From the NCBI GenBank assembly GCA_965227835.1, contig OZ245768.1, forward strand, positions 840,001 to 872,000: a DNA stretch of 32,000 bases. Direction: 5' to 3'. Source of the DNA: Candidatus Saccharimonadota bacterium (GTDB lineage: Bacteria > Patescibacteriota > Gracilibacteria > BD1-5 > UBA6164). Both the position numbers and the translations under genes were made by a program. Below are positions 6,001 to 31,590 of this stretch, piece after piece (the first letter of the stretch is position 1; each line of letters begins with the position of its first letter). The notes under the pieces are model-generated. The model saw only the letters and a program-made list of their open reading frames with translations, was not told the origin of the DNA and did no database searches.

Positions 6001-8000
6001 ATAGATTTAAAATAGTATTTGTTTGTTTTCCAATTATTCCAACTGGTATTAGTTGAGGTAGACGATGATGTAGTATTATTTCACTTACATTCATAAACAG
6101 TCACTTTAACAGTTTCTCATGATTCTCAATAATCAACTTCTACTTCTTTTCAAGGATCACTATATGATAAATATTTAGCTTGATTATTATCTAGATATAA
6201 ATGCCTTATTTCACATTTTCAAATACCTGAATCATTATATATATCCTCAAATACTAAATCAGAATTATATCTACCACTGGTATTATCTGTTTCACAAGAC
6301 CATCTCTGACCTTTCAATTCATAATCTGCTCAATCATATTTTCTTTGTAATAAAAGATTATTATCCAAACAATTATATGGGGAAGGGTTCAGAGAATTAT
6401 TTTCTATTTTTTTAGATCATATTATATCAAAGACAGGTTCTATTGCTCATTTTAAATTATAAGGTTTTAGCTCCATAACTCCGGTTTCACTAATTTTTTC
6501 ATTATCTAGATTCAAAGGTGTATTTCATCACCATAATCATTTTAGAGATTTACCACTTTGGATTAATCGCTGACAATTGTTGTTAAGTCTATTTATATCT
6601 CAATCTATTAAATTGATATTTAATCCTCTGTTTGCTTCTACAAGTTGTCAGGAGTTTGCAGTATTTCCTCTGTATATACTACATTCATAAGATGAGTTTA
6701 TGTTAGATGCTTTTTTACCGTGAAGATAGTTTTCAAAGTATCTATTATATCATGTTTCATTGTCTTTTTTATGAATATTTGTAGGAACAGCTATTTTTCT
6801 TGATAAAGAAGTTTTTACTAGATTGTCTATTTCTTCTTCTAAATCATTGTTTGCTGATTTTATAACTTTTTGACTTACTATATCTAAAACAGATATAAAA
6901 TAAGGTATTAAATCAACATTTACTCAACTTGTTCACTCGTTGTATCTTCAAGCATTGTGAAGATTTGTTCTAAAATCAGATATAGATCATTTATTGAAAA
7001 TTTCTATAAAAGTGTTTGTAGTACCATCTACAATTTCTTTGGTCATTATATCACTAGTATTTGTGGTATCTGGGGAACTTGAACTAGCAAAAGCATCTTT
7101 TAGCTCATCTGAATCAATAGCTCAAACTATATTTTCCAGTTGAGAATTTTGTGAATCAAGTACTTCATCTTTTATCTTGTCAGCCAGTTCTTTTGAATAT
7201 CTATTGTAGCTTATATCTTCTATATTTTTCATATATGCATCATAACCTTTATATGATGAATAATCTATAGATTTTTGTTCTCTGATTCAGTCAAAATAAA
7301 AAACAGAAGGTGTATAATCAGAAGGAACCTCTTCTTCTCTGTTACCATTTAATACATTTATAGAACTAGAAAATTGATTTTCTCATTCATAGAAATCATG
7401 ATTTTTATCAAGGAAATCTTTTATTTTGGATATATCTTCGTTTGTATCTCAAGTATTTGGAGATATAAAAGAATGCCATATTTCTGGCTTTGGATTTGAA
7501 ATATTTCAATCATTTTTCTGAAATATATTAGTGTCATGATCGTATATAAATCCCTTATCATCAAAATCTACATATGGGAATACAGATTTGATTGTTTCTC
7601 AATTTTTTCAAACTATTGGTAGTGGTATATTTCATATAAAAATACTTCAAATAAGTCTAGACTCAAAATCCACTTCTTGGAGGGATTTATATCACTGGTT
7701 ATAAAGGCTTTCGTTTAGAGATGCTATTTGAAAAGAGTTTGTTTCTTGTTTTATGGGTAATATTACAGCAATAGTTTTTTCAAGTGTGTTTTGTATATCT
7801 TTTGCATATCTCTCTATTTCATCATCAAGTTCTTCATAAATTTCTTCACTAACTATTATTGAAACTAGATTTGAAAAATCTTTGTTTGTAGCATAGGCTT
7901 GATTGAAAAAAGAAAAAATAGACAAACCCGTGATTTGTCCAAAAAAGAAGGCAAAAAGAAGGATATATGAAATTATTTTTTGTAGTGTGGAGTAGTTCAT
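1..8000 (-). CDS. Giant secreted/cell-surface protein, partial: the C-terminus lies beyond the left window edge. At least 2,666 codons under table 25.
   Basis: ATG at 8000-7998. The N-terminus MNYSTLQKIISYILLFAFFFGQITGLSIFSFFNQAYA/TNK is a classic signal peptide. I checked every codon of this minus frame (plus-strand triplets starting at positions divisible by 3) from 8000 down to 1 and found no TAA or TAG, only frequent TGA. Track ORFs 7692-8000 and 3402-3614 are fragments of this frame. Hand-translated stretch: ...NQGYKSLQEVDFESRLIGSIFIGNIPLPIVGKNGETIKSVFPYVDFDDKGFIYDHD... Confidence 0.85.
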
Positions 8001-8198
8001 ATATTTTGTGATTTATTTGCTTTTCTCAAAATAAAAAAAGCTTTCAAATATAATATTTGAAAAGTCTTTTTTCACAAATCTTTTGTGATGTTTTATTTCT
8101 GCAAAATTAAAGTGTATAAAAAAATAATCTTTTTTGAAGTTTTAGAAAAAATAGAAACTTTAAAAATTACATTTGACTTTAGATTTTAAAAAATTTTT

Positions 8199-8309: not shown

Positions 8310-8768
8310 ATGCGATATTTAGCATTAATGTCTGTTCTTTTATCTTTTTCATCTTTATGTATGGCATATGAGGTGGGAGAAGTAGATACCTCTTTCAAGA
8401 TTTTAGGCCCCAACCACAAAATTGTAATAGAGGGATTCCAAGATCCACGAATTTCAGGTGTAACATGTCATATAAGCAGGGCTAAAAGAGGGGGTATTAC
8501 TGGAGGTATTGGTATCGCTACTGATACTTCAGATGCATCAATTGCTTGTAGACAAACTGGTCCAATTAATGAAGACAAAGTTGCAAGATTAGAAGACGGA
8601 GAAGAAGTTTTTAAAAAAAGCACTTCTATTTTGTTTAAAACTATGCAAGTGGTAAGGTTTTACGATGAAGAAGCAAATACAATTGTTTATCTTGTTTATT
8701 CAGATAAATTGATTGATGGCTCTCCTAAAAACTCTATATCTACCGTTCCTATAATGAACTGGGATTAG
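8310..8768 (+). CDS. creA: CreA-family periplasmic protein (152 aa, signal peptide).
   Basis: Intact in the standard code. The sequence MRYLALMSVLLSFSSLCMA/YEVGEVDTSFKILGPNHKIVIEGFQDP...VTCHISRAKRGGITGGIGIATDTSDASIACRQTGPI...VFKKSTSILFKTMQVVRFYD...YLVYSDKLIDGSPKNSISTVPIMNW follows the E. coli CreA pattern as I recall it. About 14 Gly codons are all GGN, with no TGA. The gene is visibly more GC-rich than its flanks. Confidence 0.9.
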   Translation: MRYLALMSVLLSFSSLCMAYEVGEVDTSFKILGPNHKIVIEGFQDPRISGVTCHISRAKRGGITGGIGIATDTSDASIACRQTGPINEDKVARLEDGEEVFKKSTSILFKTMQVVRFYDEEANTIVYLVYSDKLIDGSPKNSISTVPIMNWD

Positions 8769-11824: not shown

Positions 11825-12790
11825 ATGTGAGAATCAAATCAAATAAGTTTTGTTATCCTAAACGAGCTAATTCCAGAAAATCATCAATATCGTAAATTTA
11901 AGAAATTGTGGAACTTTGATTGAGTAAATAAAATACTAAAAAATATAGATCTATGAAAAACTCATGTATGATATTGAGTAAAAAAATTATTTCTATGTTT
12001 ACTAATCCAGTTTATGGAAGATCTATCAGATAGAGAGTTAGAGAAATATCTTGCAGAAAATTTAGCTGGTAAATGGTTTTGCTGATTTAAATTAACAGAT
12101 AAAACTCCAGATTATAGTATATTCTCAAGAGCAAGAAAAAAGATATGAACAAATGAACTATCAAAGATATTTGAAGATTTAAAAAATCAATTATCAAATA
12201 AGGGGTATATGAGTGAAGTGTTTACATTTGTAGATGCTTCTCATTTAGTTACTAAAGCTAATTTATGGGAAGAAAGAGATAAATGAATAAAAGAATGATA
12301 TGAAAAAATGAATAATGAAACTCTTCCAAAAGTTGCTAATGATAAGGAAGCTAAAATTTGATCTAAGTGAAAAAATAAATTTTGGTATGGTTATAAAAAA
12401 CACGCTAGTGTTGATATGCAATCTTGAATGATAAACAAGATAGCTATAACTCAAGCTAATGTAACAGATGCAAAGTGAATGAAACATGTATTACCAAATT
12501 CATGAGCAGTATATGCTGATAAGTGATATTGTATTTGACCAGCTATATTATCATCAAAAAAGAAGTGATTACATTTATGTGCAATAAAGAAGAATAATAT
12601 GAAAGAGAAGGATAAGGATAAAGATAGATTTTATTCTAAACTTAGATCTCCTTATGAGAGAGTATTTTCAAAAATGAATCATAGAGTGAGATATAAATCT
12701 GTAGTAAAAAACCAGTTTACTGCATTTATGGAAGCTATATCTTTTAATCTCAAAAGATTGGTTGTATTAGAGGAAATCCCAATAGCTTAG
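11825..12790 (+). CDS. IS5-family DDE transposase (321 aa under table 25).
   Basis: Hand translation: MGESNQISFVILNELIPENHQYRKFKKLW...KKLFLCLLIQFMEDLSDRELEKYLAENLAGKWFCGF (InsH/DUF772-type N-terminus)...FVDASHLVTKAN...FWYGYKKHASVDMQSGMINKIAITQANVTDAKG...AVYADKGY...SPYERVFSKMNHRVRYKSVVKNQFTAFMEAISFNLKRL. It has about 19 in-frame TGA codons. Track ORF 12599-12790 is its tail. Confidence 0.9.
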
Positions 12791-14124: not shown

Positions 14125-14562
14125 TTACCAGTTTAAATCTAACTGATTTCCATCAATGGTTTTATCCTTATGTTGCTGATGTTGAACATAATTTTTTATC
14201 ATATCCAAGTCAAGTCAAACTGTACTTACATAGTATCATCTACTCCAGAAATTCTTCGAGTACAGTCATTTCTTCTTACTATGTTTGTTATGAAGTATTA
14301 TTGCACTCTTTCATTTCAATCTTCACAGAATTTCTGCAACAGAGTATTTTGGAGATATCCTCAAAACGAGATGAACATGATCTATCGTTATATTTCATTT
14401 TAATATCTCAAAATCATATCTCTTTGCAAGTTCATGAAATGTGTCTCGTATATCTTTTCTAACTGATTGAAAAAGTATTTTTTTTCGGTACTTTGGTACC
14501 ACCACTATGTGGTAAGTGCAGTCCCAATTCACATGGGACTGCTTTGCGTATTTGTGGGACAT
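14125..14562 (-). CDS. tnpA: IS200/IS605-family Y1 (HUH) transposase TnpA (145 aa under table 25).
   Basis: MSHKYAKQSHVNWDCTYHIVVVPKYRKKILFQSVRKDIRDTFHELAKRYDFEILKGNITIDHVHLVLRISPKYSVAEILGRLKGKSAIILHNKH...NFWSRGYYVSTVGLDLDMIKNYVQHQ. The HUH motif (HVHLV) and the catalytic YYVSTVG motif are present. Seven in-frame TGA codons encode Gly. The frame scan was clean. Confidence 0.9.
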
Positions 14563-14661: not shown

Positions 14662-15087
14662 GTTTAGTGTTGGATTAATTAAAAACATAAAACTTTGTAA
14701 AAAATTCCTTCATAAAATCAGCAACCTAGTTTTATAAAAAATTCCCAAAGTAAGAAATGAAGTGCAATTAAAAGAGAAGAAAATATAGTATTCCCCGTAG
14801 GGTAATAACATTATTTTCTATTTGTCAAATAATTTTTTCAAACCTACCCACTTTTTTGTGTTTTATAGCTTATCCTTTACCTTTATATAAATGAAAACAG
14901 AGGTTCTATATTAATTGACTTTTGTAAATACCAAATTAGCTTAAATAAGTCTTTTATAAAACAAAAAAGATAAAGAACTAAAAATAGTCCAATATCTTTT
15001 TATTTAAACTAAAAGCTAAGTAAACTTTCTATAAAAAACATAATTCGCTATCACTTTGAGATTATCAAAACTAACCTCCAAACTTTT

Positions 15088-18000
15088 CTAAAACCCACAA
15101 AGAAATATTTCAAGAATCCAAAACCTTAATATTAGTACTTATTTTTTGATTATTCAAATTTATAAACACTTCCATTTTTCATGGTTTTTGTTCAAGCAAA
15201 AAATTCTTTAAATCAACCAAATCTTGTTTTTTAGCAAAACTAGGAATATCTATAACATACTCATCTCTTAAAATAATTTTTTCAAGATTTTCAGATTTAT
15301 TGTCGTTAATTTTTTCATCTAAACTAGATTCAAAATCTTCAAGTTTTTCTTCATCTTCCAAAAAATCATCTCCCAAAGAATCAGAAATCTTTTTTTGATT
15401 TTCATCAAAAAGACCATTTTCTATAGCTTGATCCCTAACCTGTGATATACTGGCTATTTTTACTCAATCAATTTTAGGTCTAATAGACTTTCTAGAATAT
15501 TCTAAATTTATATCCAAAAATCCTTCAACTATAATAATTTTGTAGAAATCTATCTTATCTCAGTATTTCTCAACATCTTTTGAAAACAAAGTAAGTTCAA
15601 AAGAATAATCATATCATTCACATTTTAGAAAAATCATAGGTTTTCAAGTCTTTGTGAAAATCTTTCTAAAATCAATTACAACTCAAATTGCTTCACATTC
15701 TTCTCTTTTGATCTCTTCATTTTCCTTCTTATTTTCTAAAGAATATTCAGGTAGTTTTGATAAATCATCAAAACTCATTTTTAGTTTATTTGTATTCATA
15801 CTTCTTCTAGAACAATATCTAAACATACCATCTAAAGGATGTCCAGAAACCCAAAATCATATCACTTCTCTTTCTCAATGCAATTTTTGTTCAAAACTCA
15901 TAGATTCTGTTTCTTCTAACTCTAGCCTTTCTTGAAATTCTTCAAAATCATCAAAAAGTCACATTTGGTTTGTCTCTTTTTTATCCTCATCTTTTCTAGA
16001 AAAATTTATCATATTAGGGACAGAAGCAAGCATAGATGCTCTTTCTCAAAATTTATCAATAGCTCATGATCTTATGAGTGCTTCCAAGGTCTTTTTATTT
16101 ATAACTTCTTTGGGGCAAGATTCTATAAAATGTTCTAAATTTCTAAAAGTTCAACCTATTTTGTCTCTAGTTTCTATTATTTTGTTTATAGGAGTATCTC
16201 ATATTCATTTTATAGCTTTGAATCAAAAAACTATAGTCTTATCATCTATATAGGTAAAATGTTTTAAAGATTCGTTTACATTTGGTGCTAAAACAGAAAT
16301 TCATTTTAAACTACATTCAAAAACCTCCAATTGAACTCTGTCTATATTTTCTTCGTCAGAAACCATAAGAGAGGTAAGAAATTCTGTGGGATAATATGAC
16401 TTTAAGTAGGCTGTTTGATATGAAATAAGAGCATAACAAGCTCAGTGTGATTTGTTGAAAGAATAATTGGATGCTGGTTGTATCATTTCTTCGTATATGT
16501 ATTTGGTTAATTCTGGTTTATATCACCTAAATTTTTCTCATTTTTCTATAAATTCTTTTTTAAGTGCTTCTATAACCTCTACTTTCTTTTTTCAAACTCA
16601 CCTCCTGAGTAAATCAGCTTCACCTAAAGAAAATCAAGCCATATATTGCACCATAAAAATCAATTGTTCTTGATATACAGCTATACCATAAGTTACATCT
16701 AAAATCTTTTTTAGATCCTCTTCTAGCATAAGTTTTTGCTCTTTTATTACCTCATCACTATATCAAGCTTTTTTCATTATTTTTATAAGTTCTTCTGGCA
16801 TATATGAAACTTTCTCTCAATGTTTTCTTTTTATATATGTTGGTATATAAGCAAGTGGTCCAGGTCTATAAAGAGAAACCATAGCTATAAGATCATCAAA
16901 AGAATTTGGTTTTAGATCACGAAGATATTTTTTCATTCAATCAGATTCAAACTGAAATACTCCAAGTGTATCACCTAAGGCAAAAGTTTCTAAAGCTTTG
17001 CTGTCTCAGGTATCTAGGTTTAAAACATCTATTTTTTTTCATTTGTTTTTTTCAATTATTTCAACTGTTCTTTTTATAACAGTAAGATTTCTAAGTCAAA
17101 GGAAATCCATTTTTAGAAGCCCTAAATCTTCTAAAGGATATGCAGAATATTGTGTTATGATTGAGTTATCATCTTTTGGTGGATATTGAAGGGCTGTATA
17201 TTTGGTCATCTTTTCAGGAGCTATAATAAGGGCACATGCATGTACTCATATTTGCCTAACATTTCACTCTATTTTTATGGCATTATCTATAATTTCTTTG
17301 TATTTTTTACTTTTATATGCCTCGGCAAATTCAAAAGAATCTTTCAAAGCTTGCTCTAGTTTGATTCAAACTTTTTCAGGAATGGTTTTTACTAGTTCGT
17401 TCATTTCAGAGAAACTTATTCCATAAACTCTTCATACATCTTTTATGGCTGCTCTTGCTGCAAAAGTACCGAAAGTACAAACTTTAACTACCTTATCTTT
17501 TCAATATTTTTCAGTACAATATTCAATCACTCTATGTAGTTCATTATCAGCAAAGTCGGTATCTATATCAGGCATAGAAATTCTTGCAGGGTTTAAAAAT
17601 CTTTCAAAAAGAAGATCATATTTCAAGGGATCTAAATCAGTGATTCAAGAAAGATATGCCATCAAGCTTCATGCTGCTGATCATCTACCAGGTCAAACGG
17701 GTATGTTTTCATATTTGGCCCAGTTTATATAGTCTGCTACTATCAAAAAATATGCATCAAATCACATTTCATGTACTACTAAAAGTTCATATTCCAGCCT
17801 ATCAATTATATTTTTTTTGTTTTCATCAAGAGAATTTATAAAATTCTTTTTTTCATCAGTGTAATAAGTAATTGATAGTTCTTTCAACTCATCTGGAAGA
17901 GTATCTGTGAGTTTTTTTTGTAAACCTTTTTTATCAAGTTTTTTTACAAGTTCAAAAATGATTTCCTCGCTCAAACAAAAATTAAATCTATAATTTAATC

Positions 18001-19012
18001 ATTTAAAAGAAAGGTATCTTAAGTACCATTCAGAAGTATCAAGTTTTTTGATTGAGTTTTGATTTTTTTCTAGATTTATAGCTTTTTCATAAATAATTTG
18101 GTCTCTGTTTGGAAGCTCAAATTTTGGTATCAAAATATTTCATGTTTCTATTTTTATATCTATTTTATCTGCTATTTTATTTGTATTTTCCAATGCTTCT
18201 GGAATAAATCAAAAAAGCATTTGCATATCTTCATATGTAGTAAATGAATAGTCTCAATTTATAAGTGTTGGTCTATCAGGATTTTCTAGTTCATGTCAGC
18301 TACCAAGAGCCATTATAACATCTTGGGATTTCATATCTTCCTTGTCCAGGTAATAGCAATTTTGAGCTGCAACTATAGGGATTTTATATTTTTCAGAAAT
18401 TCTTATGATTTCTTTTGTTACGAGTTTTTGTTTAGGTATATCTTCATGATCAAGTATTTCTAAATAAAAATCATCTTCTCAAAAAATATCCTGATAAAGT
18501 TTTATTTTATCAAGTATTTCTTCATCTGTTTTTCAAGATAATATATAAAACGGTATTTCTCAAGAAATAGGTCAGGATAGGGCTACAATATCTAAATTTT
18601 TTTTTGGATTGTCTGAAGGAGAACAAATACCTTGGTTTTCTAGCAAGCTGGAAGATTCTTTTATATCTTCTAATTTGATTCTAGATGTGCTTCAAGAGTT
18701 GCTTAAATTGGCTTTTGTAACTAGAGATAAGATATTTCTATATCCGTTAATATTTTTTGCTAAAAGTACTAGTTTGTGGTTAATTTTTTCATCCAAGCTT
18801 GATTCTACAAGTATTTCTGTTCAAAGTATTGGTTTTATTCACTGTTCAATACAAGATTTATAAAATTCGTGGCAACCATATACATTTGAAGTATCTGTAA
18901 GAGCAACTGCTTTCATACCTAGTTCTTTAGCTTTTTTGGCATATTCTGAAGGTTTAGGTAATCATTCTAAAATAGAGTAGTGGCTATGATTATGTAGGTG
19001 TACAAAAGACAT
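15088..19012 (-). CDS. dnaE: DNA polymerase III alpha subunit. The end is uncertain: the TGA near 15178 must be read as Gly under table 25, which moves the stop to the TAG at 15088-15090.
   Basis: ATG at 19012. PHP domain: [46 protein letters not shown]. Catalytic motif: [18 protein letters not shown] (about 17550-17600). The frame scan from 15361 to 19012 found no TAA or TAG. Track ORFs 17762-17974 and 15179-15376 are fragments in the same frame. Confidence 0.85.
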
Positions 19013-19109
19013 AAAAGTAAATTGGGTTTTTAATTTTATTTAAAAAATTATAATAATTTAGAATTTTTATTCAAAAGTAAAAAATATTTGTAAATAGAGG
19101 TTTAAAAAA

Positions 19110-19153
19110 GCCCCTTTATGTGTTTTCAAGTAATTGAAAACACATAAAGGGGC
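19110..19153 (-). terminator. Strong (bidirectional-looking) terminator between the membrane-protein gene and dnaE.
   Basis: 18-bp stem gcccctttatgtgttttc / gaaaacacataaaggggc with loop aagtaatt. T-runs lie on both sides. Confidence 0.75.
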
Positions 19154-19175
19154 TAAATTTTTTACTCCTCTTTAT

Positions 19176-19976
19176 TTAGTCTAAGCTATAGGTTAAACAC
19201 TGTTTTTTGAGAACAGTATATAATCCCCACAAAACCATGAAAGGTAGGCAAATAAAAGCAGAGACTATTAAAAGTATTAAAATTAAATATATGAATCCCA
19301 ATATATAAGACATAAATGGATTATCTATGAATGAAATACCTATATATAGCAATAAAGGTAATAGTGCATATATTGGTCTCAAACGAAATGTAAAATTAAG
19401 TATTTTTAAGTCTTTGGTATATTTATCTTTTTCAACAGGAAATTGAAAGTCATCTGAATTCAAAAAAATCAAAAAACTTCTATATCCAAGATCATATATC
19501 TTGTGTCCCAAAAGAAGCTTATAAGAAACTAATAATAAGTAAAAAATTAAAAAAACTAAAATACCTATTAAAGTACCTATAAATAAAAAAACAAAACCAA
19601 AAAACATAAATATTGGTAAAAAGAATATAATGTTGTGTGTATCACAAAAATTCATATCCACCTTTGAAGATTCTTTATACTTATTAAGATTTTTATGGTA
19701 GTAAAATAAATTTCTAAAAGAAAGATATATAACCTTCAAAAAAATACCATCTTTTGATATTTTCTTTTGCTTAATGAGATAAAATAGACTACACCAAAGT
19801 AAGGCAAAAACTAAAAGCAAAGTTAATGCAATTTTTGATACAAGTTCAATATTTAGTTCTGTATAGTTGTGATAAATATATAAAGATCCAAATATTAAAC
19901 AAGCAAGTAATACTATATTACAAAAAAATCTAATTCCACCAGAAATAAGAGGAATAGAGTTTGCTTCTTTTTTCAT
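19176..19976 (-). CDS. Hypothetical multipass membrane protein (266 aa). No family recognised.
   Basis: Intact in the standard code with no TGA. Several long hydrophobic segments: FFCNIVLLACLIFGSLYIY, IALTLLLVFALLWCSLFYL, IFFLPIFMFFGFVFLFIGTLIGILVFLIFYLLLV, ILGFIYLILILLIVSAFICLPFMVLWGLY. Confidence 0.8.
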   Translation of the reverse strand: MKKEANSIPLISGGIRFFCNIVLLACLIFGSLYIYHNYTELNIELVSKIALTLLLVFALLWCSLFYLIKQKKISKDGIFLKVIYLSFRNLFYYHKNLNKYKESSKVDMNFCDTHNIIFFLPIFMFFGFVFLFIGTLIGILVFLIFYLLLVSYKLLLGHKIYDLGYRSFLIFLNSDDFQFPVEKDKYTKDLKILNFTFRLRPIYALLPLLLYIGISFIDNPFMSYILGFIYLILILLIVSAFICLPFMVLWGLYTVLKKQCLTYSLD

Positions 19977-19982
19977 AATAAA

Positions 19983-19988
19983 CTCCTT
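19983..19988 (-). promoter_or_regulatory. Shine-Dalgarno (AAGGAG) of the membrane-protein gene.
   Basis: The minus strand reads aaAAGGAGtttattATG, a 6-nt spacing. Confidence 0.6.
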
Positions 19989-20189
19989 TTTATGTGAATG
20001 AACGAAAGCAAAATTATAGTATGTATAGATTTAATATTGTCAAAAAAATTGTATTTTTACATATATTTTCATTTTACCAAGTTATAATTTATAAAAATTA
20101 ACTAATTTTTCTAAAATTTGACTTAAAACTCTTTTTTTATAAGATACCTTTTACAGTTTTTTTGACACAAGTTAGAAGTTTAAAAAATT

Positions 20190-20265
20190 GCCAATTTAGC
20201 TCAGTTGGTAGAGCACTCGCCTTGTAAGCGAATGGTCATCGGTTCAAGTCCGATAATTGGCTCCA
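20190..20265 (+). tRNA. tRNA-Thr: tRNA-Thr (anticodon UGU), with encoded CCA.
   Basis: GCCAATT acceptor pairs with AATTGGC. D arm GCTC-AGTTGGTA-GAGC. Anticodon loop cTTGTAa. T arm ATCGG-TTCAAGT-CCGAT. Ends in TCCA. Confidence 0.9.
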
Positions 20266-20269
20266 TTTA

Positions 20270-20354
20270 GGGCAGATTCCAGAGTGGTCAAATGGGGGGG
20301 ACTGTAAATCCCTTAGCTACGCTTTCGGGGGTTCGAATCCCTCTCTGCCCACCA
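20270..20354 (+). tRNA. tRNA-Tyr: tRNA-Tyr (anticodon GUA), class II long variable arm, with encoded CCA.
   Basis: GGGCAGA acceptor pairs with TCTGCCC. Anticodon loop cTGTAaa. T loop GGTTCGAATCC. 85 nt. Confidence 0.9.
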
Positions 20355-20361
20355 TAAAGAA

Positions 20362-20446
20362 GCCCAAGTGGTGGAATTGGTAGACACGCTGGTCTTAGAA
20401 ACCAGTTCTTAATCGAGTGAGAGTTCGAGTCTCTCCTTGGGCACCA
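20362..20446 (+). tRNA. tRNA-Leu: tRNA-Leu (anticodon UAG), class II, with encoded CCA.
   Basis: GCCCAAG acceptor pairs with CTTGGGC. Anticodon stem ctggt/accag with loop cTTAGaa. T loop GAGTTCGAGTCTC. 85 nt. Confidence 0.9.
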
Positions 20447-20502
20447 TTTATCACAAAAGATACAATATATAAAATTTTTATTAGAAAATAAATTTAAAAA
20501 AT

Positions 20503-20724
20503 ATGAAAACTTGAATACATCCTAAATCAAATTTAGTTAAAATAACCTGCTCTTGTGGCAGTGTTTTTGAATTAAGTTCTACAATTTCTTGAGATACAAG
20601 AGTAGAAATCTGTTCAAATTGTCATCCTTTTTATACAGGGGAACAAAAAATTCTTAAAACTGGTGCCGTTGATAAGTTTTATGCAAGAAGAAAAAAGACT
20701 GAAGAGTTGAATAAGAAAAAGTAA
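20503..20724 (+). CDS. rpmE: 50S ribosomal protein L31 (73 aa under table 25).
   Basis: [73 protein letters not shown]. Two TGA codons fall at conserved Gly positions, including MK-x-G-IHP. Confidence 0.9.
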
Positions 20725-20746
20725 ATTTTTGTTTTGAGACCTAAAT

Positions 20747-20788
20747 AAAGAAAAAAATCATTTCGTTAATGAAATGATTTTTTTCTTT
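20747..20788. terminator. AT-rich 18-bp hairpin between the convergent genes rpmE and array gene R1. Likely a bidirectional terminator.
   Basis: aaagaaaaaaatcatttc gttaat gaaatgatttttttcttt, with T/A runs on both sides. Confidence 0.55.
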
Positions 20789-20815
20789 ATTTTAAATATT
20801 TTTAAGGATAGAGTT

Positions 20816-22519
20816 TTATAAATCTTGTCTTGGTATTCCTCAGAGTTCTAAAACCTTTTTTAAACATGTATTATTTTGTCATCAATTATTCAATAATATT
20901 GTAGCTCATCTTAAAGTTCAAAATATTGTTCAATATCAAAAATATAATTTGAAAAAGTTACATACTCAAATAGTTTTTAGATCTACTTCTACTTTGTTTC
21001 AATCTTTATCTGTAATACTTGATAAAAGTATCTTTATATGTTCAGGATTTTTATAATCTACCCTTTTTATACCTAAATCTAGTCTTTTTATTCAGTAATA
21101 TCATAAGATTTTTATTAGAGTTTTGTTATTTATTCATCAATTTCCTTCTAATATTTTAGTTCATCTTACCTTTCAAAATTCTGTTGAATATCAAAAATAC
21201 AATCCAATAAATACCGCAACTCAAATGGTTTTTAAATCTATTTCTATTTTTTCTCAATTACTCTCTGTAATATTTGATAAAAGTATCTTTATATGTTCAG
21301 GGTCTTCAATATCGAGTTCTTCTTTAGCTAAATCTGGTCTTGATATCCAAGAGGACTCTAAAATATTTTTTAAGGCTTTACTAGATTTTAGTCAATTATT
21401 TTTTAGCAAAGTTTGTCATGATAACATTCAAAATTCTGTTCAATATCAAAAATATAGTCTTTCAAAAGATTTAACTCAAATAGCTTTTAAATTTACATCT
21501 ATCTTGTTTCAATACTTATCTGTAATTTTTGATAAGAGTTTTTTTATATGTTTAGGGTTTTTACAATCTAATTCCATACTAGGCAAATCTGGCCTTGATA
21601 TTCATCAAACTTCTAAAAGCTTTTTTAGATATATCCTATTTCTTCATCATGTTTTTATTAATATACTTTGTCATGATAACATTCAAAATACTGTTCAATA
21701 TCAAAAATATAGTTTAGGAAAAGCTACAGCTCAAATAGTTTCTAAATCTACTTCTAGATTATTTCAATACTTATCTGTAATTCTTGATAAGAGTATCTCT
21801 ATATGATCTGGATTCTCATAGTCCAGTAGGGGGTTTCAACTAAGTAAAAAATTATTATCAAATAAAATCTCTAAATTACTTTCATATTTATCAAAATATT
21901 TTATAGATATAGGGAAATCTCCATTTACCATATCTCACTTATTAATGCTAGATAAAAAGTCTGGCTCTATAATTCATTTGTAAATATATGTATCTTCTCA
22001 TATTTGATTATTTATTAATATAGTTCTTGAAATTCCTTTTGTCTTTATTGTAATTATCCTATATGGAAGATTTATACTATTTGATTCAAGTGTTTCTATA
22101 TATGTTTTTATTTCCACTCATTCTAATCTTAATCAATATTTCTTGTATAAAAGTTTTAAAAATATCTCATATTTTGGAACTTCTCTAAAATGTTCAGGAT
22201 CTTCTCAAAATTGATTAGTTTTTGGAGAGCAGAAAATAGAAAAATTTAATTTCTCTTCACTACCTTTTTCTAACTCAATTATCTTTTTTATTGCTAAAGA
22301 AAAAAATCTATCATAACATATCTTTGTGTCCAAATATATACCTCTTAAAAGTAAGTTACTACATTTGGGTTCTACTTCTTTGTATATTTCTAAAAATCTA
22401 TCTATAAATTCTTTCTTTGATATTCAATATTTAGAGGTTTCTTTAAATAGTAAATTCATTCTTTCATAATTTCAATCATTTTTAACTGATTCACTAATTG
22501 TAGTATCAATGTTGCTCAT
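20816..22519 (-). CDS. Array paralog R1: 232-aa head plus 4 modules of 85 aa (567 aa).
   Basis: ATG at 22519, TAA at 20816-20818. The frame scan found no in-frame TAA or TAG. Head: MSNIDTTISESVKNDGNYERMNLLFKETSKYGISKKEFIDRFLEIYKEVE... Last module: DYKNPEHIKILLSSITDKDGNKVEVDLKTIGVCNFFKLYFGYGTIFGTLRGATILLNNGGQNNTCLKKVLELGGIPRQDL*. Many TGA codons encode Gly. Confidence 0.85.
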
Positions 22520-22542
22520 CTTAAAAATATTTTGTTGTTAGT

Positions 22543-24492
22543 TTATAAGTCTGGTCTTGATATTCATCAGGCTTCTAAAAGCTTTTTTAAAGATACTTTT
22601 TTTATTTGTCATGGGATATTGTACAAAATACCATGTCAACCAAACATTCAAAATTCCGTACCATATCAAAAATGTAGTTTAGAAAAAGCTGTAACTCAAA
22701 TATTTCTTAAATCTGTATCTAATTTATTTCAGTCCTTATCTGTAATACTTGATAACAATATTTTAATATGTTTAGGATTTTTATAATCTACCTTTTTTAT
22801 ACCTAAGTCTGGTCTTTTTATTCAGTTATAAGATAAAATTTTTTTTAAAGTTCTGTTATTTTTTCATCAATTACTTTCTAATATCATAGATCATCTTACT
22901 TTTCAAAATTCTGTTAAATATCAAAAATACAATTCATTGAAGGTTCAGACTTTGACAGTATTTAAATCTATTTTTAATTTGTTTCAATTACTCTCTGTAA
23001 TATTTGATAAAAGTATCTCAATATTTTTGGGATTTTTAATATCAAAATCATCCTTAGCTAAATCTGGTCTTGATATTCATCAAATTTCTAAGAGTTTTTT
23101 TAGATATATCTTATTTTCTCATCATATATTTCTTAATATCTTTTTTCAACTTAAAATTCAAAACTCCGTTTTATATCAAAAGTATAGATTAGTAAAAATT
23201 GAAACTCAAATAGTTTTCAAATCTATATCTAATTTGGTTCAATCCTTATCTGTAATACTTGATAAAAGTGTTTTAATATGTTTAGGATTTTTATAATCTA
23301 AATCTTTGCTTGGCAAATCTGGTCTTGGTACTCAAGAAGATTCCAAAAATTTTTTTAAATATATAACATTTTTTCATCAATTTTTTATTAATATTGTAAT
23401 TCATGTTACAATTCAAAATTCAGTTCAGTATCAAAAACATAGGTTATAAAAAGCTAAAATTCAAATAGTTTTTAAATCTACTTCTAAATTGTTTCAATAT
23501 TTATCTGTAATATTTGATAACAATGTCTTTATATGACCGGGATTCTCATGATCTAATTTTTTGTTTGGTAAATCTGGTCTTGATACTCATCAAGTTTTCA
23601 AAATTTTTTTTAAAATTATGTTATTTTGTCATCAGCTTTTTGTTAATAATTTAGCTCATTTTACAATTCAAAATACAGTTCAATATCAAAAAAATAATTC
23701 TTTAAAATATGTTATTCAAACAGTTTTTAGGTCTATTTCTAATTTGTTTCAATTTTTATCTGTAATATTTGATAAAAGTATCTTTATATGTTCAGGGTCT
23801 TTAAAATCTACTGAATTTATTCAGTCAAGTGAAAAATCACTGTTTAATAAAACTTCTAAATTTTTCTCAAACCTTTCACAATATTTTATGGATATAGGAA
23901 ATTTACCATTTAATTCATCTCATTTGCTTATATTAGATAAAAAATTTGGCTCTATAATTCATTTATAAATATGTGTATCCTCTCATATTTGATTGTTTAT
24001 TAATATTGTTGTTGAAATATCATTATTTTTTATTGTGATTATCTTGTATAAAAGTTTTCTAGAACTATCTAATTCAAGTTCTTCTGTATATGTATTTATT
24101 TCTAGTCATTCTAATTTTAGTCAATACTTCTTGTGTAAAAGTTTTAAAAATATTTCATATTTAGATGACTCTGTAAAATACTCAGAATCTTTTGAAAATT
24201 GATTAGTTTCTTGAGAATCAAAAACAGAAGTTTTTGGTTCTTCTTCATTATTTTTATCTAATTCAATTAATTTTTTTATTGCTAGAGAAACAAATTTATC
24301 ATAAGAGACATTCAAACCTACAAATCAGTTTTTAAAAAGTATATCTCTATTTTTGGACTCTATTTCTCAGTATATATCAAAAAATTTATCAACAAAAACC
24401 TCTTTTGATATTCCGTATTTAGAAATTTCTTTAAGCAAAACCTCCATCTTTGTATAACTTGAATTAGCTATAACAGTGCTTTTATTATTCAT
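22543..24492 (-). CDS. Array paralog R2: diverged head plus 5 modules (649 aa).
   Basis: ATG at 24492, TAA at 22543-22545. The frame scan was clean. Head: MNNKSTVIANSSYTKMEVLLKEISKYGISKEVFVDKFFDIYGEIE...KYEIFLKLLHKKYGLKLEGLEINTY...INNQIGEDTHIYKGIIEPNFLS... The protein ends ...GISRPDL*. Confidence 0.85.
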
Positions 24493-24588
24493 TTAAAAAA
24501 GTCTTAATTAATATAAAATTATTGTCTTAATATAAATAAATTTTTAAAGCTAAGGGGAGGTTTTTAAAAATATTTATTTCGTTTTATG

Positions 24589-26040
24589 TTATAAATCTGG
24601 TCTTGGTATTCATAGGTATCCTAAAATTTTTTTTAAAGATTTACTATTTTCTCATGGTGTATTATATAATATACTATGTCAGCAGAACATTCAAAACTCT
24701 GTAGAGTATCAAAAATATAATCTAGCAAAACCTGTAATTCAAATAGTTTTTAAATCTATATCTACTTTATTTCATTTCTTATTTGTGATACTTGATAAAA
24801 GTATGCTTATATGTTTAGGATTTTTATAATCTATTTTTTTATTATATAGATCAAGTCTTTTTATTCAAGAATATAATAGAACCTTTTTTAAAGCTTTACT
24901 ATTTTTTCATCAGTTATTTTCTAATATTCTAGATCATCTTACTACTCAAAATCCTGTCCCATATCAAAAATAGAGTTCGCTGAAAACTCAAACCTGAATA
25001 GTATTTAAATTTATATCTACATTCTCTCAGTCCTTCTCTGTAATTTTTGATAAGAGTTTTCTTATATGTTTGGGGTTTTTACAATCTAATTCCCTACTTA
25101 GTAAATCCGGTCTTGATATTCATCAAACTTCTAAAAGCTTTTTTAGATATATCCTATTTCTTCATCATGTTTTTATTAATATACTTTGTCATAATAATCT
25201 TCAAAATACCGTTCAATCTCAAAAATATAGCCTAGAAAAATTTGATGTTAAAATATTTCTTAAATCTACTTCTACAGTATATCAGTTCTTATCCGTAATT
25301 CTTCATAAAAGTATCTCTATATGCTCTGAATTCTCATAATCCAATAGTTTTAATCAACTAAGTAAAAAATTATTATCAAATAAAATTTCTAAATTACTTT
25401 CATATTTATCAAAATATTTTATAGATATAGGGAAATCTCCATTTACCATATCTCACTTATTAATGCTAGATAAAAAGTCTGGCTCTATAATTCATTTGTA
25501 AATATATGTATCTTCTCATATTTGATTATTTATTAATATAGTTCTTGAAATTCCTTTTGTCTTTATTGTAATTATCCTATATGGAAGATTTATACTATTT
25601 GGTTCAAGTGTTTCTATATATGTTTTTATTTCCACTCATTCTAATCTTAATCAATATTTCTTGTATAAAAGTTTTAAAAATGTCTCATATTTTGGAACTT
25701 CTCTAAAATGTTCAGGATCTTCTCAAAATTGATTAGTTTTTGGAGAGCAGAAAATAGGAAAATTTAATCTCTCTTCACTACCTTTTTCTAACTCAATTAT
25801 CTTTTTTATTGCTAAAGAAAAAAAATTATTACGAAAAGTTTCTAGTTTTAAACAATTATTCAAAAATATATTACTATACCTAAATTCTATTCCTTCATAT
25901 ATTTCCAAAAATCTATTTACAAAATCTCCCTTTGATATTCAATATTTGGAAATCTCTTTAAATAAGATATCCATCTTTGTATAACTTCAAGTGTTTTTAT
26001 TGTTATCAATAACTTTAGGTGTAGTTTCAATTTTGTTCAT
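24589..26040 (-). CDS. Array paralog R3: head plus 3 modules (483 aa).
   Basis: ATG at 26040, TAA at 24589-24591. The frame scan was clean. Head: MNKIETTPKVIDNNKNTGSYTKMDILFKEISKYGISKGDFVNRFLEIYEGIE... Confidence 0.85.
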
Positions 26041-26090
26041 TTAATAGTTTGAATTTAAAAATAAAGTCCAAAGCAATATCTGTTTTTCAT

Positions 26091-27794
26091 TTACAAATCT
26101 GATCTTGATATTCATCAAGCATCCAAAATCTTTTTTAAAGATTTATTATTTTGTCATAGATTATTTTTTAATATTCTATATCAACCAATTATTCAAAATT
26201 CAGTTCAATATCAAAAATTTAAATTGGAAAAAGCCCTAACTCAAATAGTTTTTAAATCTACTTCTACTTTGTTTCAATCTTTATCTGTAATACTTGATAA
26301 AAGTATCTTTATATCTCTAGAATTTTTATAGTCTATTCATTTTATGCCTAAGTCCAACCTTTTTATTCAGTAATATCATAAGATTTTTATTAGAGTTTTA
26401 TTATTTATTCATCAATTTCCTTCTAATATTTTAGTTCATCTTACCTTTCAAAATTCTGTTGAATATCAAAAACATAATTCAGTGAAAATTCAAATTTTAA
26501 TAGTTTTTAAATCTATTTCTACTTTGTCTCAATTACTCTCTGTAATATTTGATAAAAGTATCTTTATATGTTCAGGGTCTTCAATATCGAGTTCTTCTTT
26601 AGCTAAATCTGGTCTTGATATCCAAGAGGACTCTAAAATATTTTTTAAGGCTTTACTAGATTTTAGTCAATTATTTTTTAGCAAAGTTTGTCATGATAAC
26701 ATTCAAAATTCTGTTCAATATCAAAAATATAGTCTTTCAAAAGATTTAACTCAAATAGCTTTTAAATTTACATCTATCTTGTTTCAATACTTATCTGTAA
26801 TTTTTGATAAGAGTTTTTTTATATGTTTAGGGTTTTTACAATCTAATTCCATACTAGGCAAATCTGGCCTTGATATTCATCAAACTTCTAAAAGCTTTTT
26901 TAGATATATCCTATTTCTTCATCATGTTTTTACTAATATACTTTGTCATAATAATCTTCAAAATACCGTTCAATCTCAAAAATATAGCCTAGAAAAATTT
27001 GATGTTAAAATATTTCTTAAATCTACTTCTACAGTATATCAGTTCTTATCCGTAATTCTTCATAAAAGTATCTCTATATGCTCTGAATTATCATAATCCA
27101 ATAGTTTTAATCAACTAAGTAAAAAATTATTATCAAATAAAATTTCTAAGTTACTCTCATATTTATCAAAATATTTTATAGATATAGGGAAATCTCCATT
27201 TACCATATCTCACTTATTAATGCTAGATAAAAAGTCTGGCTCTATAATTCATTTGTAAATATATGTACCTTCTCATATTTGATTATTTATTAATATAGTT
27301 CTTGAAATACTCTTTGTCTTTATTGTAATTATCCTATATGGAAGATTTATAATATTTGGTTCAAGTGTTTCTATATATGTTTTTATTTCCACTCATTCTA
27401 ATCTTAATCAATATTTCTTGTATAAAAGTTTTAAAAATATCTCATATTTTGGAACTTCTCTAAAATGTTCAGGATCTTCTCAAAATTGATTAGTTTTTGG
27501 AGAGCAGAAAATAGAAAAATTTAATTTCTCTTCACTACCTTTTTCTAACTCAATTATCTTTTTTATTGCTAAAGAAAAAAATCTATCATAACATATCTTT
27601 GTGTCCAAATATATACCTCTTAAAAGTAAATTTTTGATCTTGAATTCTACTTCTTTGTATATTTCTAAAAATCTGTCTATAAATTCTTTCTTTGATATTC
27701 AATATTTAGAAGTTTCTTCAAATAGTAAATTCATTCTTTCATAATTTCAATCATTTTTAACTGATTCACTAATTGTAGTATCAATGTTGCTCAT
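26091..27794 (-). CDS. Array paralog R4: head plus 4 modules (567 aa). Near-duplicate/mosaic of R1 and R3.
   Basis: ATG at 27794, TAA at 26091-26093. The frame scan was clean. It has the same 1704-nt length as R1 and the same start, MSNIDTTISESVKNDGNYERMNLLF... It ends ...GISRSDL*. Confidence 0.85.
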
Positions 27795-27817
27795 CTTAAA
27801 AATATTTTGTTGTTAGT

Positions 27818-30800
27818 TTATAAGTCTGGTCTTGATATTCATATACTTTCTAAAATTCTTTTTAAATATACTTTTTTTATTCATCAATTGTTTATTCATA
27901 AAGAATTTTTAATTATTGTAACTCATTTTATGCTTCAAAATTCAGTTCAATATCAAAAATATAGTTCAGAAAATCTGGTTGATTTAATAGTTTTTAAATC
28001 TTCTTCTGCCTTCTTTCAATACTTGTCTGTAATACTTGATAAAAGTATTTTTATGTGTTCAAGGTTTCCATAATCTAAATCTTTGCTTGGCAAATCTAGC
28101 CTTGGTATTCATATACTTTCTAAAATATTTTTTAAAGATATACAGTTGACTCATAAATTTCTATCTAATATTGTAAATCATGTAACTTTTCAAAACTCAG
28201 TTCAATATCAAAAATCTAATTTAGAGAAGTCTCTCATTCAAATAGTCTTTAAGTCTATTTCAACCTTATTTCAATCTTTATCTGTGATACTTGATAAAAC
28301 TATTTTTATATGTTCAGGATTTCTATAATCTAATTCTTTACTTGGCAGATCTGGTCTTGATATTCATATATCTTCTAAAATCTTTTTTAGGGATATCCTA
28401 TTTATTCATAAATTATTCTTCAATATTATAGATCACCTTACAATTCAAAATTCAGTTCAACTTCAATAATAAAGTTCTATAAAATCCCCAACTAATATAG
28501 TTTTTAAATCCAATTCTACTTTATTTCAATTTTTATCTATAATATTTGATAATAATAATTTGATATGATTTGGATCTTCAAAGTTCCAATAATTTCTTGA
28601 TATTCAAGCTGATGTTAAAATATTTTCTAAAGATTTAATATTTAATCATAAATTATTAAATAATATATTACGTCATTTCACTATTCAAAATTCAGTTCAA
28701 TATCAAAAATGTAGTTCAGAAAAATCTCTAACTCAAATAGTCTTTAAGTCTATTTCAACCTTATTTCAATCTTTATCTGTGATACTTGATAAAACTATTT
28801 TTATATGTTCAGGATTTCTATAATCTAATTCTTTACTTGGCAGGTCTGGTCTTGATATTCATATATTTTCTAAAAAATTTTTAAAAGATATACCATTAAC
28901 TCACAAGCCCTTATTTAATATAGCACCTCATGTAATATTTCAAAACTCAGTTCAGTATCAAAAATATAGTTTAGTAAAATATCAAATTCAAACAGTTTTT
29001 AAATCTAATTCCATTTTATTTCAATGTTCATCTGTGATGCTTGATAAAAGTATCTTGATATGCTCAAAATTTTTATAATCTATTTTTTTACTTGGTAAAT
29101 CTGATCTTGATATTCCTCCATTCTCCAAGATCTTTTTTAGAGATATATTATTAATCCCTCCATTCTTATTTAAAATTAGACTTCATCTTACATTTCAAAA
29201 TTCAGTTCAGTATCAAAAATGTAGTTCAGAAAAATTTATTAATCAAATAGTCTTTAAATCTGTTTTTACTTTATTTCAATGCTTATCTGTGATGCTTGAT
29301 AAAAGTATTTTTATGTGTTCAGAGTTTTCTAAATCCAAATCATCTTTTATTATTAATACATTTTTTAAAACTTTTCTTAAACTACTTTTACTTAAATTTC
29401 AATTATTTCTCAATATTGAACTTCAACTTACAATTCAAAATTCAGTTCAGTATCAAAAATGTAGTTTAGAAAAATATATAACTCAAACGGTTCTTAAATC
29501 TACTTCTACTCCATTTCAATATTTATCTGTAATACTTGATAAAAGTATTTTTAAATGTTCAGGATTTCTATAATCTAATTCTTTATCTGGTAAATCTAGT
29601 CTTGATATTAATCAAAAACCTAAAATCTTTTTTAAAGATATACTATTAGCTCCTCCATTATTATTTAAAATTATAGTTCATGTAACCTTTCAAAATTCAG
29701 TTCAATATCAAAAATGTAGTTTGGAAAAATCTACAACTCAAATAGTTTTTAAATCTATTTCTAAATTGTTTCAATCTTTATCTGTAATATTTGATAATAA
29801 CAATTTGATATGATTTGGATCTTCAAAGTTCCAATAATTTCTTGATATTCAAGCTGATGTTAAAATATTTTCTAAGGTTTCAATCTTTAATCATGAATTC
29901 TTAGACAGGATTTTTCATCACTTTACTATTCAAAACTCAGTTCAATATCAAAAATTTAGCTTAGAAAAATCTCTAACTCAAATAGTTTTTAAATCTACTT
30001 CTACCTTATTTCAATACCCATCCGTAATACTTGATAACAATATTTTAATATGTTCAAGATTTTTACAATCTACATTTTTTATACCTAAATCTAGTCTTTT
30101 TATTCAGTAATATCATAAGATTTTCATTAAAGTTTTGTTATCTCTTCATCAATTTCTTTCTAAGATTGTAGATCATTTTATCATTCAAAACTCAGTTCAA
30201 TATCAAAAGTTTAATTTAGAGAAATATAAAACTCAAATAGTTTTTAAATCTACTTCTACCTTATTTCAATACCCATCCGTAATACTTGATAACAATATTT
30301 TAATATGTTCAAGATTTTTACAATCTACATTTTTTATACCTAAATCTAGTCTTTTTATTCATACAAGACCTAAAACTTTTTTTAAGGTTTTGATATTATT
30401 TAATCAATTATTTATTAATATTGTAGATCATTTTACCACTCAAAATTCAGTTCAATATCAAAAATTTAATTTAGAAAATTTGATTAATAAAATAGTATTC
30501 AAATCTACATCTATCTTATTTCAATCCTTATCTGTAATACTTGATAATAATGTTTCAATATGCTTAGAATTTTTATAATCTAATTCTTTGCTTGGTAAAT
30601 CTGGTCTTAGTACTCATATGTATTCTAAAATCTTTTTTAAAGATATCTTATTTATTATTCATAAACCATTCTTTAAAATCATCCTTCATGTTACTTTTTG
30701 AAAAACTGTCATGTGTCAAAAATATCAATCTATAAAAGCTTCAATTCAAACGGTTCTTAAATCAATTTTTAATTCATTTCAATATTTATCTGTAATACTT

Positions 30801-31567
30801 GATAAAAGTATTTTTAAATGTTCAGGATTTTTATAATCCAATGAATCTGATCATTTCCGTAAAAAATCATCACTCAATAAAACCTCTAAGTTCTCCTTAA
30901 ATTTATCAGAATACTTTATAAATACTGGGGATTTATCATTTATTTTATCTCATTTACTTACATTTGATAAAACTGATGGTTCAATAATTCAATAATATAC
31001 ATATGTCCCTTCTCATATCTGATTATTTATTGCTATTGTCAGTGATGTATTCTCTGTTTTTAATGTAATTATCTTGTACGGAAACTTTCTAAAACTATTT
31101 TTTTTAAAATTTTCTACATATGTATTAATCTCCACTCATTCAAGATTCAATCAATATTTTTTATGCAAAACCTTTAGAAGTGTTTCATATTTTTTGACTT
31201 CTTTAGGAGCTTCAGATTTATTATTAGGTTCTTTTCTTTTTTTTAACAAGTTTAGGCTAGGTTCTTTAGGAACAAAAATAGAAAAATTTAAATCATTTTC
31301 TTTATCTTTTTCTATCTCAATTATCTTTTGTGTTGCCAGTGATACAAATTTGTCAAAAAAAGATTCTACTTCTCTATATCAATTTCTTAAAAATACTTCA
31401 CTATACCTAGATTCTATTTCTTCGTATATTTCTAAAAATCTATCTATAAAATCTTCCTTTGATATTCAATATTTGGAAATTTCTTTGAATAAAATATCCA
31501 TCTTTGTATAACTTCAGATGTTTTTGCAAGGAGCAATAAATGTAGGTGTGTTTTCAATTTTGTTCAT
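27818..31567 (-). CDS. Array paralog R5: 243-aa head plus about 12 modules (1,249 aa).
   Basis: ATG at 31567, TAA at 27818-27820. The frame scan across all 3,750 nt found no TAA or TAG. Head: MNKIENTPTFIAPCKNIGSYTKMDILFKEISKYGISKEDFIDRFLEIYEEIE... Last module: DYGNLEHIKILLSSITDKYGKKAEEDLKTIKSTRFSELYFGYGTEFGSIKGVTIIKNSLGINNGGIKKVYLKRILESIGISRPDL*. Confidence 0.85.
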
Positions 31568-31590
31568 TTTAAAAATGTTTTATTGTTAAT

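Follow-up and report, generated by a model that had tools for sequence, protein, structure and literature searches.

How have two genes of a tandem array come to be identical over several hundred base pairs when the remainder of their sequence has diverged? The question is raised by a 32,000-nt window of contig OZ245768.1 (positions 840,001 to 872,000), in which positions 20816-32000 hold a head-to-tail array of at least six paralogous genes, R1 to R6, all encoded by the minus strand under genetic code 25. The encoded proteins share one layout: a head of 226-241 aa forms the N-terminus, and behind it come modules of 85 aa (255 nt), 3, 4, 5 or 12 to a protein, numbered here from the head as m1, m2 and so on. 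The paralogs form a statistically significant mosaic in which adjacent segments have incongruent relationships, and homologous recombination or gene conversion among the tandem copies most probably made it. Gene conversion in tandem paralogs is textbook knowledge, and as a case of recombination the array is unremarkable, adding one more example to those already known. The interest of the locus lies in the family, an orphan and fast-evolving one with no known domain or fold that is confined to Gracilibacteria and their relatives. Array coordinates given below are on the minus strand.

An identical tract in two array genes

R1 (20816-22519; 567 aa) is an open reading frame (ORF) that is open only with TGA as a sense codon. 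It consists of a head (21830-22519) and four modules, m1 (21575-21829), m2 (21320-21574), m3 (21065-21319) and m4 (20819-21064). R4 (26091-27794; 567 aa) is colinear with R1 at an offset of 5275, and its head (27105-27794) is likewise followed by m1 (26850-27104), m2 (26595-26849), m3 (26340-26594) and m4 (26094-26339). Within this framework, 406 bp are identical between the two genes. The first copy (21252-21657) covers the end of m1, the whole of m2 and the start of m3 in R1, and the second (26527-26932) lies in R4. An initial annotation of the window had reported about 400 bp of identity between R1 and R4. The identity itself is borne out, whereas the offset then given, 5276, yields identity only at background level. 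The second interval then given (26529-26933) was off by 1-2 bases.

R1 and R4 are free of indels over the whole gene, stop codon included, and over the 48 bp ahead of its start codon, and they differ at 129 of 1701 coding sites. The upstream identity (22520-22567 = 27795-27842) spans the 23-nt spacer and reaches into the last codons of the preceding gene; an exact run of 123 bp is found at 22445-22567. The head segments, which had been said to differ at only a few bases, do so at 9 of 490 positions (21841-22330 versus 27116-27605). When the R1/R4 differences were shuffled in 100,000 permutations, the longest identical run averaged 68 bp and reached 222 bp at most, against the 406 bp observed (P <= 1e-5). 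The same test on third codon positions alone gave P about 2e-5.

The divergence between the two genes is distributed very unevenly. DNA identity is about 96% in the head, 87% in m1, 100% in m2, 91% in m3 and 80% in m4, and synonymous divergence (dS) is 0.087, 0.19, 0, 0.27 and 0.34 in the same order. Since the unevenness is present at silent sites, uneven constraint cannot account for it. Background module pairs in the array have 62-84% DNA identity and about 45-76% protein identity, close to the 50-60 percent that had been estimated for the other modules.

A rival account of these data would be a plain, recent duplication of one gene into R1 and R4 without recombination, with selective constraint leaving some parts more alike than others. 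The indel-free colinearity over the whole gene and its 48 upstream base pairs is what such a duplication would produce. However, dS itself spans 0 to 0.34, the third-position test is significant, and the other paralogs are about 30% divergent in the same region. Duplication of a larger, 5275-bp unit (R1-R2-R3 giving R4-R5-R6) was also considered and is out, as identity at that offset falls to background beyond R1/R4.

Mosaic segments in R4, R3 and R5

The segment of R4 next to its head has a different nearest relative from the rest of the gene. R4 m1 is 97% identical to R3 m1 (25093-25347) as opposed to 87% to R1 m1, in agreement with the earlier observation that this module matches R3 rather than R1. 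When R1, R3 and R4 are compared as a triplet, all 38 informative sites in R4 27359-26950 side with R3, whereas outside this interval 137 of the 142 informative sites are R1-like and 5 are R3-like (permutation P <= 2e-4). The R3-like tract therefore covers at least 26950-27359, with its counterpart in R3 at 25193-25602. Its right-hand breakpoint falls within 26869-26949. The 64 bp at 26869-26932 are identical in R1, R3 and R4, and a switch back to R1 in a stretch common to all three is where a recombination junction would be expected. Exact runs shared by R3 and R4 measure 156 bp (R3 m1/R4 m1) and 64 bp. R4 had been described as a patchwork of R1-like and R3-like blocks. The mosaic is real, but R1 m1 could equally well be the odd one out, and the two readings of which gene was the recipient are equally simple.

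R3 (24589-26040; 483 aa), with a head at 25348-26040 and three modules, is itself composite. Its codons 1-73 are 81-82% identical to R5 and to the single R gene of a close relative (locus L004), and 67% identical to R1 and R4. After codon 73 the relationship is reversed, with 97-98% identity to R1/R4 and 69-70% to R5 and the L004 gene. By this comparison R3 is a chimera, and the nearest relative of its head switches at codon 73. The 3' head block concerned lies at 21830-22306 in R1, 25348-25824 in R3 and 27105-27581 in R4, with 97-98% mutual identity. Exact tracts link the heads of R1 and R4 (270 bp) and those of R1 and R3 (214 bp), on a background of about 70%. R5 (27818-31567; 1249 aa) has a head and 12 modules, three of which are 80 aa long. 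Exact tracts of 132, 111, 74 and 56 bp occur inside it, the two longest being 29975-30106 = 30230-30361 and 28238-28348 = 28733-28843, and R1 and R5 share a tract of 49 bp, again on a background of about 70%. The initial description of the mosaic holds as far as it went, but it was too narrow, as R3 is chimeric too and R5 has internal tracts of its own.

These segments bear directly on the duplication account. R4 m1 groups with R3, the R3 head changes partner, and constraint explains neither. Taken together, the range of dS, the switch in the R4 triplet and the switch in the R3 head form a pattern that simple whole-gene duplication followed by divergence cannot yield, and we regard plain duplication as very unlikely. 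The same three lines of evidence uphold the proposal, made in the initial annotation, of recombination or gene conversion among the paralogs.

Probable homologous recombination among the paralogs

A mechanism can be suggested from the layout of the array. DNA with a 255-bp period, together with near-identical heads, would supply many stretches of homology, and misaligned paralogs could undergo homologous recombination through them. Non-reciprocal transfer (gene conversion) would copy tracts of roughly 50 to 500 bp between genes or modules, and unequal crossovers would alter the number of modules and genes. The 406-bp identity of R1 and R4 would be the youngest tract, and the R3-like block in R4, the head block of R1, R3 and R4 and the tracts inside R5 would record further events. 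Colinearity is kept between R1 and R4 and their lengths are equal, which is compatible with non-reciprocal conversion. The edges of the 406-bp tract fall within m1 and m3, off the module edges, so ordinary homologous recombination fits better than a precise exchange of modules or cassettes. Beyond the mosaic itself, the account is inferential as regards its enzymatic route (RecA-type recombination), the direction in which each tract moved and any adaptive role. The adaptive role would possibly lie in reshuffling the modules of a binding protein whose sequence changes very rapidly from one close strain to the next. Recombination may also be ongoing, as was proposed initially.

Ectopic gene conversion and concerted evolution are known in tufA/tufB, in Neisseria opa and in the surface-protein families of Mycoplasma and Borrelia. 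The R array resembles these families in several respects. Paralogs of one genome carry identity tracts of a few hundred base pairs, far longer than the divergence on either side would permit, the over-long identity includes silent sites, adjacent segments are incongruent, and copy and repeat numbers vary. It differs from them in its host, a Gracilibacterium with code 25, and in its proteins, which have no known relatives or secretion signal.

Several points weigh against recombination as the origin of the mosaic. Perfect identity over 406 bp within a repeat array is of the sort that may be introduced, or shifted, by consensus polishing or by graph threading. The R genes are present on one contig only in the whole protein collection, with no independent assembly. 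There is no recombination gene within the window, and the machinery is assumed. The transfers could be oriented and dated only with an outgroup for each module.

The first two of these points lead to the main rival explanation, in which the array is real but the perfect identity, the R3-like block or both arose from multi-mapped reads or mis-threaded repeats during assembly and polishing. In a variant of it, alleles of co-existing strains were stitched together. The locus is indeed highly repetitive: a repeat finder reports a 255-nt periodicity with 28 copies, because of the module structure. In addition, the L004 locus has one gene at a stated coverage of 3.32x, indicating that this region is either hard to assemble or truly variable. 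Yet each of R1 to R5 is an intact ORF that has a start, a stop and a spacer to itself, and the many tracts are of differing age (100%, 97-98% and 91% identity), unlike one collapsed block. The length of the contig, 1.49 Mb, suggests a long-read or curated assembly. An artefact of either kind is, taken jointly, unlikely, and we continue with recombination between genuine paralogs as the preferred explanation.

Programmed variation and retroelements as rival explanations

If the paralogs recombine, they could do so as part of a programmed system, in which one or a few expressed genes are repeatedly rewritten from silent donors to vary a protein for host interaction or defence. Antigenic-variation cassette systems of this kind include pilE/pilS, vlsE/vls, msp2 and tprK. 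The array shares with them segmental, mosaic conversion in short tracts among tandem copies, a possibly truncated copy and strong variability between strains, the locus being radically different between close relatives. The truncated copy would be R6, which is called in the database as a headless ORF of 224 aa and could serve as a silent donor. In contrast to the cassette systems, at least five of the array copies are complete genes, and R1 to R5 are full-length with heads and start codons, at a tight spacing that suggests co-transcription. An expression site accompanied by silent donors is not what the array presents; no single expression site is seen and only R6 appears headless. The products do not look surface-exposed, since neither a signal peptide nor a lipobox nor a membrane segment was found in the R proteins. 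Nor does a recombinase, an invertase or any dedicated element adjoin the array; the IS5-like and IS200-like transposases are at a distance of 6-9 kb. A programmed cassette system is thus an improbable explanation for this locus.

A diversity-generating retroelement (DGR) with template and variable repeats was also weighed. DGRs are frequent in candidate-phyla bacteria, and near-identical repeat pairs are present at the locus. However, no reverse transcriptase is found among the long ORFs of the window scanned with Pfam, and the tracts are far longer than typical variable regions. The mismatches between R1 and R4 fall on all four bases (A 37, C 34, T 30, G 28; 73 transitions and 56 transversions) rather than being adenine-specific. 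This spectrum effectively rules out a DGR, which we consider extremely improbable. Ordinary recombination between the repeats remains the favored mechanism.

Genetic code and host

The array becomes visible only under a changed genetic code; the initial annotation mentioned neither this requirement nor the minus-strand location of the genes. The window has 26% G+C and is nearly devoid of ORFs under translation table 11. With TGA read as sense, long ORFs emerge, almost all of them on the minus strand. Code 4 (TGA = Trp) also opens the ORFs, but the resulting proteins are implausibly rich in tryptophan, and code 25 (TGA = Gly) suits the conserved glycine positions. One line of evidence comes from a DnaE-like ORF at 15071-19012, minus strand, in which TGA occupies sites that include the GPGRGSAAGS motif. 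Its 52 in-frame TGA codons are matched by TGA or glycine in relatives and none by tryptophan. Similarly, TGA-encoded sites in the R-family head pair with glycine in homologues that use the standard code, for example P0037, which is correct under table 11. In the R genes, 80-87% of the glycines are encoded by TGA; R5 has 103 TGA against 20 GGN codons.

In a collection of species-representative genomes, the closest DnaE loci belong to metagenome-assembled genomes of Candidatus Gracilibacteria, with 52-68% amino acid identity. On these sequence grounds, the nearest DnaE loci and the TGA codons at glycine positions, the window is assigned to a Gracilibacterium that uses code 25. The practical consequence is that the standard bacterial code hides the array genes entirely, and standard-code gene calling misses nearly all genes of the window. 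A side observation concerns three loci labelled 'Candidatus Peribacteria' (L020, L023 and L027), whose dnaE genes contain 53-67 in-frame TGA codons. These are recoded organisms, and the label looks doubtful.

Organization of the array

R1 to R5 are separated from each other and from R6 by spacers of 23, 96, 50, 23 and 23 nt, three of which are near-identical in sequence. R2 (22543-24492; 649 aa) has a head and five modules. R6 is cut by the window edge, and its 3' end (31591-32000) is known from translation. The database ORF call P0011 has its start inside a module, and its C-terminal 135 aa are identical to the window translation of R6. The two modules of R6 that are visible (31594-32000) have 88% DNA identity to each other, compared with an array average of about 70%, which points to local homogenisation or to a duplication within the gene that happened recently.

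A hairpin with a 20-bp stem (20746-20789, assigned to neither strand) lies between the convergent R1 and L31 genes, and is likely a bidirectional terminator that closes the array. A promoter scan found no more sites than in shuffled sequence, and an Rfam scan of the window returned three tRNAs only, with no RNA element within the identical tract.

Relatives and distribution of the family

The family is rare. In a collection of 5.8 billion clusters just two family proteins were found outside this genome, and an exhaustive profile search across 1.84 billion proteins recovered 42 representatives. About 15 of the 42 have R-type modules, and about 25 share the head only. The latter bear other tandem repeats, of about 85-90 aa, that are dissimilar to each other. 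Across lineages, the head of about 230 aa is joined to at least six dissimilar repeat types of about 80-95 aa (P0015, P0022, P0023, P0027 and P0028, as well as P0029, P0033 and P0026/P0037), none with an annotated domain. To combine one head with so many kinds of repeat is unusual. An hhalign comparison of the R module with the 90-aa repeat of P0037 detected no homology. A scan of genome contigs with the module pattern gave 68 matches, none of which was confirmed.

The relatives are present as a single copy in varied neighbourhoods (L001, L005, L032) or as a tandem pair (L006). In the pair (L006 10001-14531, GCA_041739085.1, standard code), two adjacent head-family paralogs have heads that are 48.5% identical, and both are followed by repeats of 90 aa that bear no relation to the R module. 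The array is thus not the only case of tandem paralogy in the wider head family. Among 24 Gracilibacteria dnaE neighbourhoods, no family member is found within 10 kb, with the exception of L004.

L004, a close relative, is syntenic with the window, in the order L10/L12, one R gene, L31, membrane protein and DnaE. Identity to window 17000-20780 is about 92% in the flanks, and within dnaE it rises to 98-100% in places, with 100% over more than 700 bp. The single R gene, on the other hand, is only about 70% identical, with 65-76% to any R gene of the array; it is nearest to R5 in the head and colinear with the tail of R1 in the modules. As judged from this one divergent gene amid flanks of about 92% identity, the array has expanded specifically in this lineage, and divergence at the locus is far more rapid than around it. 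The low-coverage L004 contig may, however, represent a collapsed array. Directly downstream of the array (20190-20446 plus and 20503-20724 plus) are genes for tRNA-Thr(TGT), tRNA-Tyr(GTA) and tRNA-Leu(TAG) and for L31. This stretch is 96-100% identical in L004, in sharp contrast to the adjacent R gene.

The R proteins and their possible function

The R proteins have resisted assignment by homology. No family match above cut-off was obtained in Pfam, NCBIfam, PHROGs or PADLOC, a sequence search of the PDB gave no match, and a literature search found no paper that describes the family. The head was modelled with AlphaFold from the standard-code member P0037 and 23 sequences, with a predicted local distance difference test score (pLDDT) of 84.7 and a predicted template modelling score (pTM) of 0.78. 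In the model, four long helices precede a small alpha/beta domain, and Foldseek found no match for it with E < 0.01 in the PDB or BFVD. The module model (pLDDT 77) was built from database translations in which tryptophan replaces the TGA-encoded glycines, and it provisionally suggests a small alpha/beta unit. With this Trp-for-Gly model Foldseek found no PDB match with E < 0.01. Hydropathy analysis revealed no hydrophobic N-terminus or membrane segment in the R proteins; the highest 19-residue values are 0.9-1.55 and the N-termini are hydrophilic.

The modules are mostly mildly basic, and their variable residues are gathered in a few patches. Modular tandem-repeat binding proteins, such as the transcription activator-like effector (TALE), ankyrin, leucine-rich repeat (LRR) and HEAT proteins, have a comparable design, with a constant domain, a varying number of similar modules and variable residues in few patches. 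Neither in sequence nor in fold do the R proteins resemble any of these. The constant head, the varying modules, the patchy variable sites and the fast divergence between strains suggest that the R proteins are modular binding proteins under diversifying pressure.

A variable repeat locus has been reported from the same phylum. Sieber et al. (2019, PMC6851277) described a Gracilibacterium with a single hypervariable gene of 9-nt (tripeptide, PTD) repeats, in which variation is only synonymous and the protein is predicted to be extracellular. Both loci are variable spots in an otherwise uniform genome, and in both the repeats complicate assembly. Here, in contrast, the modules are 255 nt long, they are spread over several genes, and recombination is mosaic.

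In this lineage the family grew from one gene to at least six, and it diverges far more between close relatives than its flanks do. In other bacteria, interaction or conflict proteins are the usual products of such loci, and the array is therefore a concrete candidate for studying how uncultivated, host-dependent bacteria vary proteins of this type. A bolder possibility is that the host is an episymbiotic or predatory Gracilibacterium and the array a locus dedicated to diversification, in which full genes and headless fragments such as R6 recombine, so that novel arrangements of modules in a modular binding protein would keep arising. This would be a rather unlikely outcome in our estimation. 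If true, it would add an undescribed fold family in which a constant head is fused, by lineage, to unrelated repeats of 80-90 aa, with a role in host interaction or in conflict with mobile elements, and no cassette-like variation system would have been described from the candidate phyla radiation before it.

Other genes of the window

Two transposase genes lie 6-9 kb from the array, one for an IS5-like DDE transposase (11825-12790, plus) and one for an IS200-like Y1 transposase (14125-14562, minus). Their presence indicates, at the level of sequence, that mobile elements are active in the neighbourhood. A giant ORF of more than 2670 aa (1-8012, minus) runs off the start of the window; it is rich in Gly, Asn and Ser, with a segment rich in Gly, Pro and Trp near its C-terminus. 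Two genes stand out by their codon usage. The membrane-protein gene (19176-19976, minus) has 0 TGA versus 12 GGN glycine codons. A CreA-family gene (8310-8768, plus; Pfam E 5e-58) has zero TGA codons and 35% G+C versus 26% for the window, and may have been acquired horizontally.

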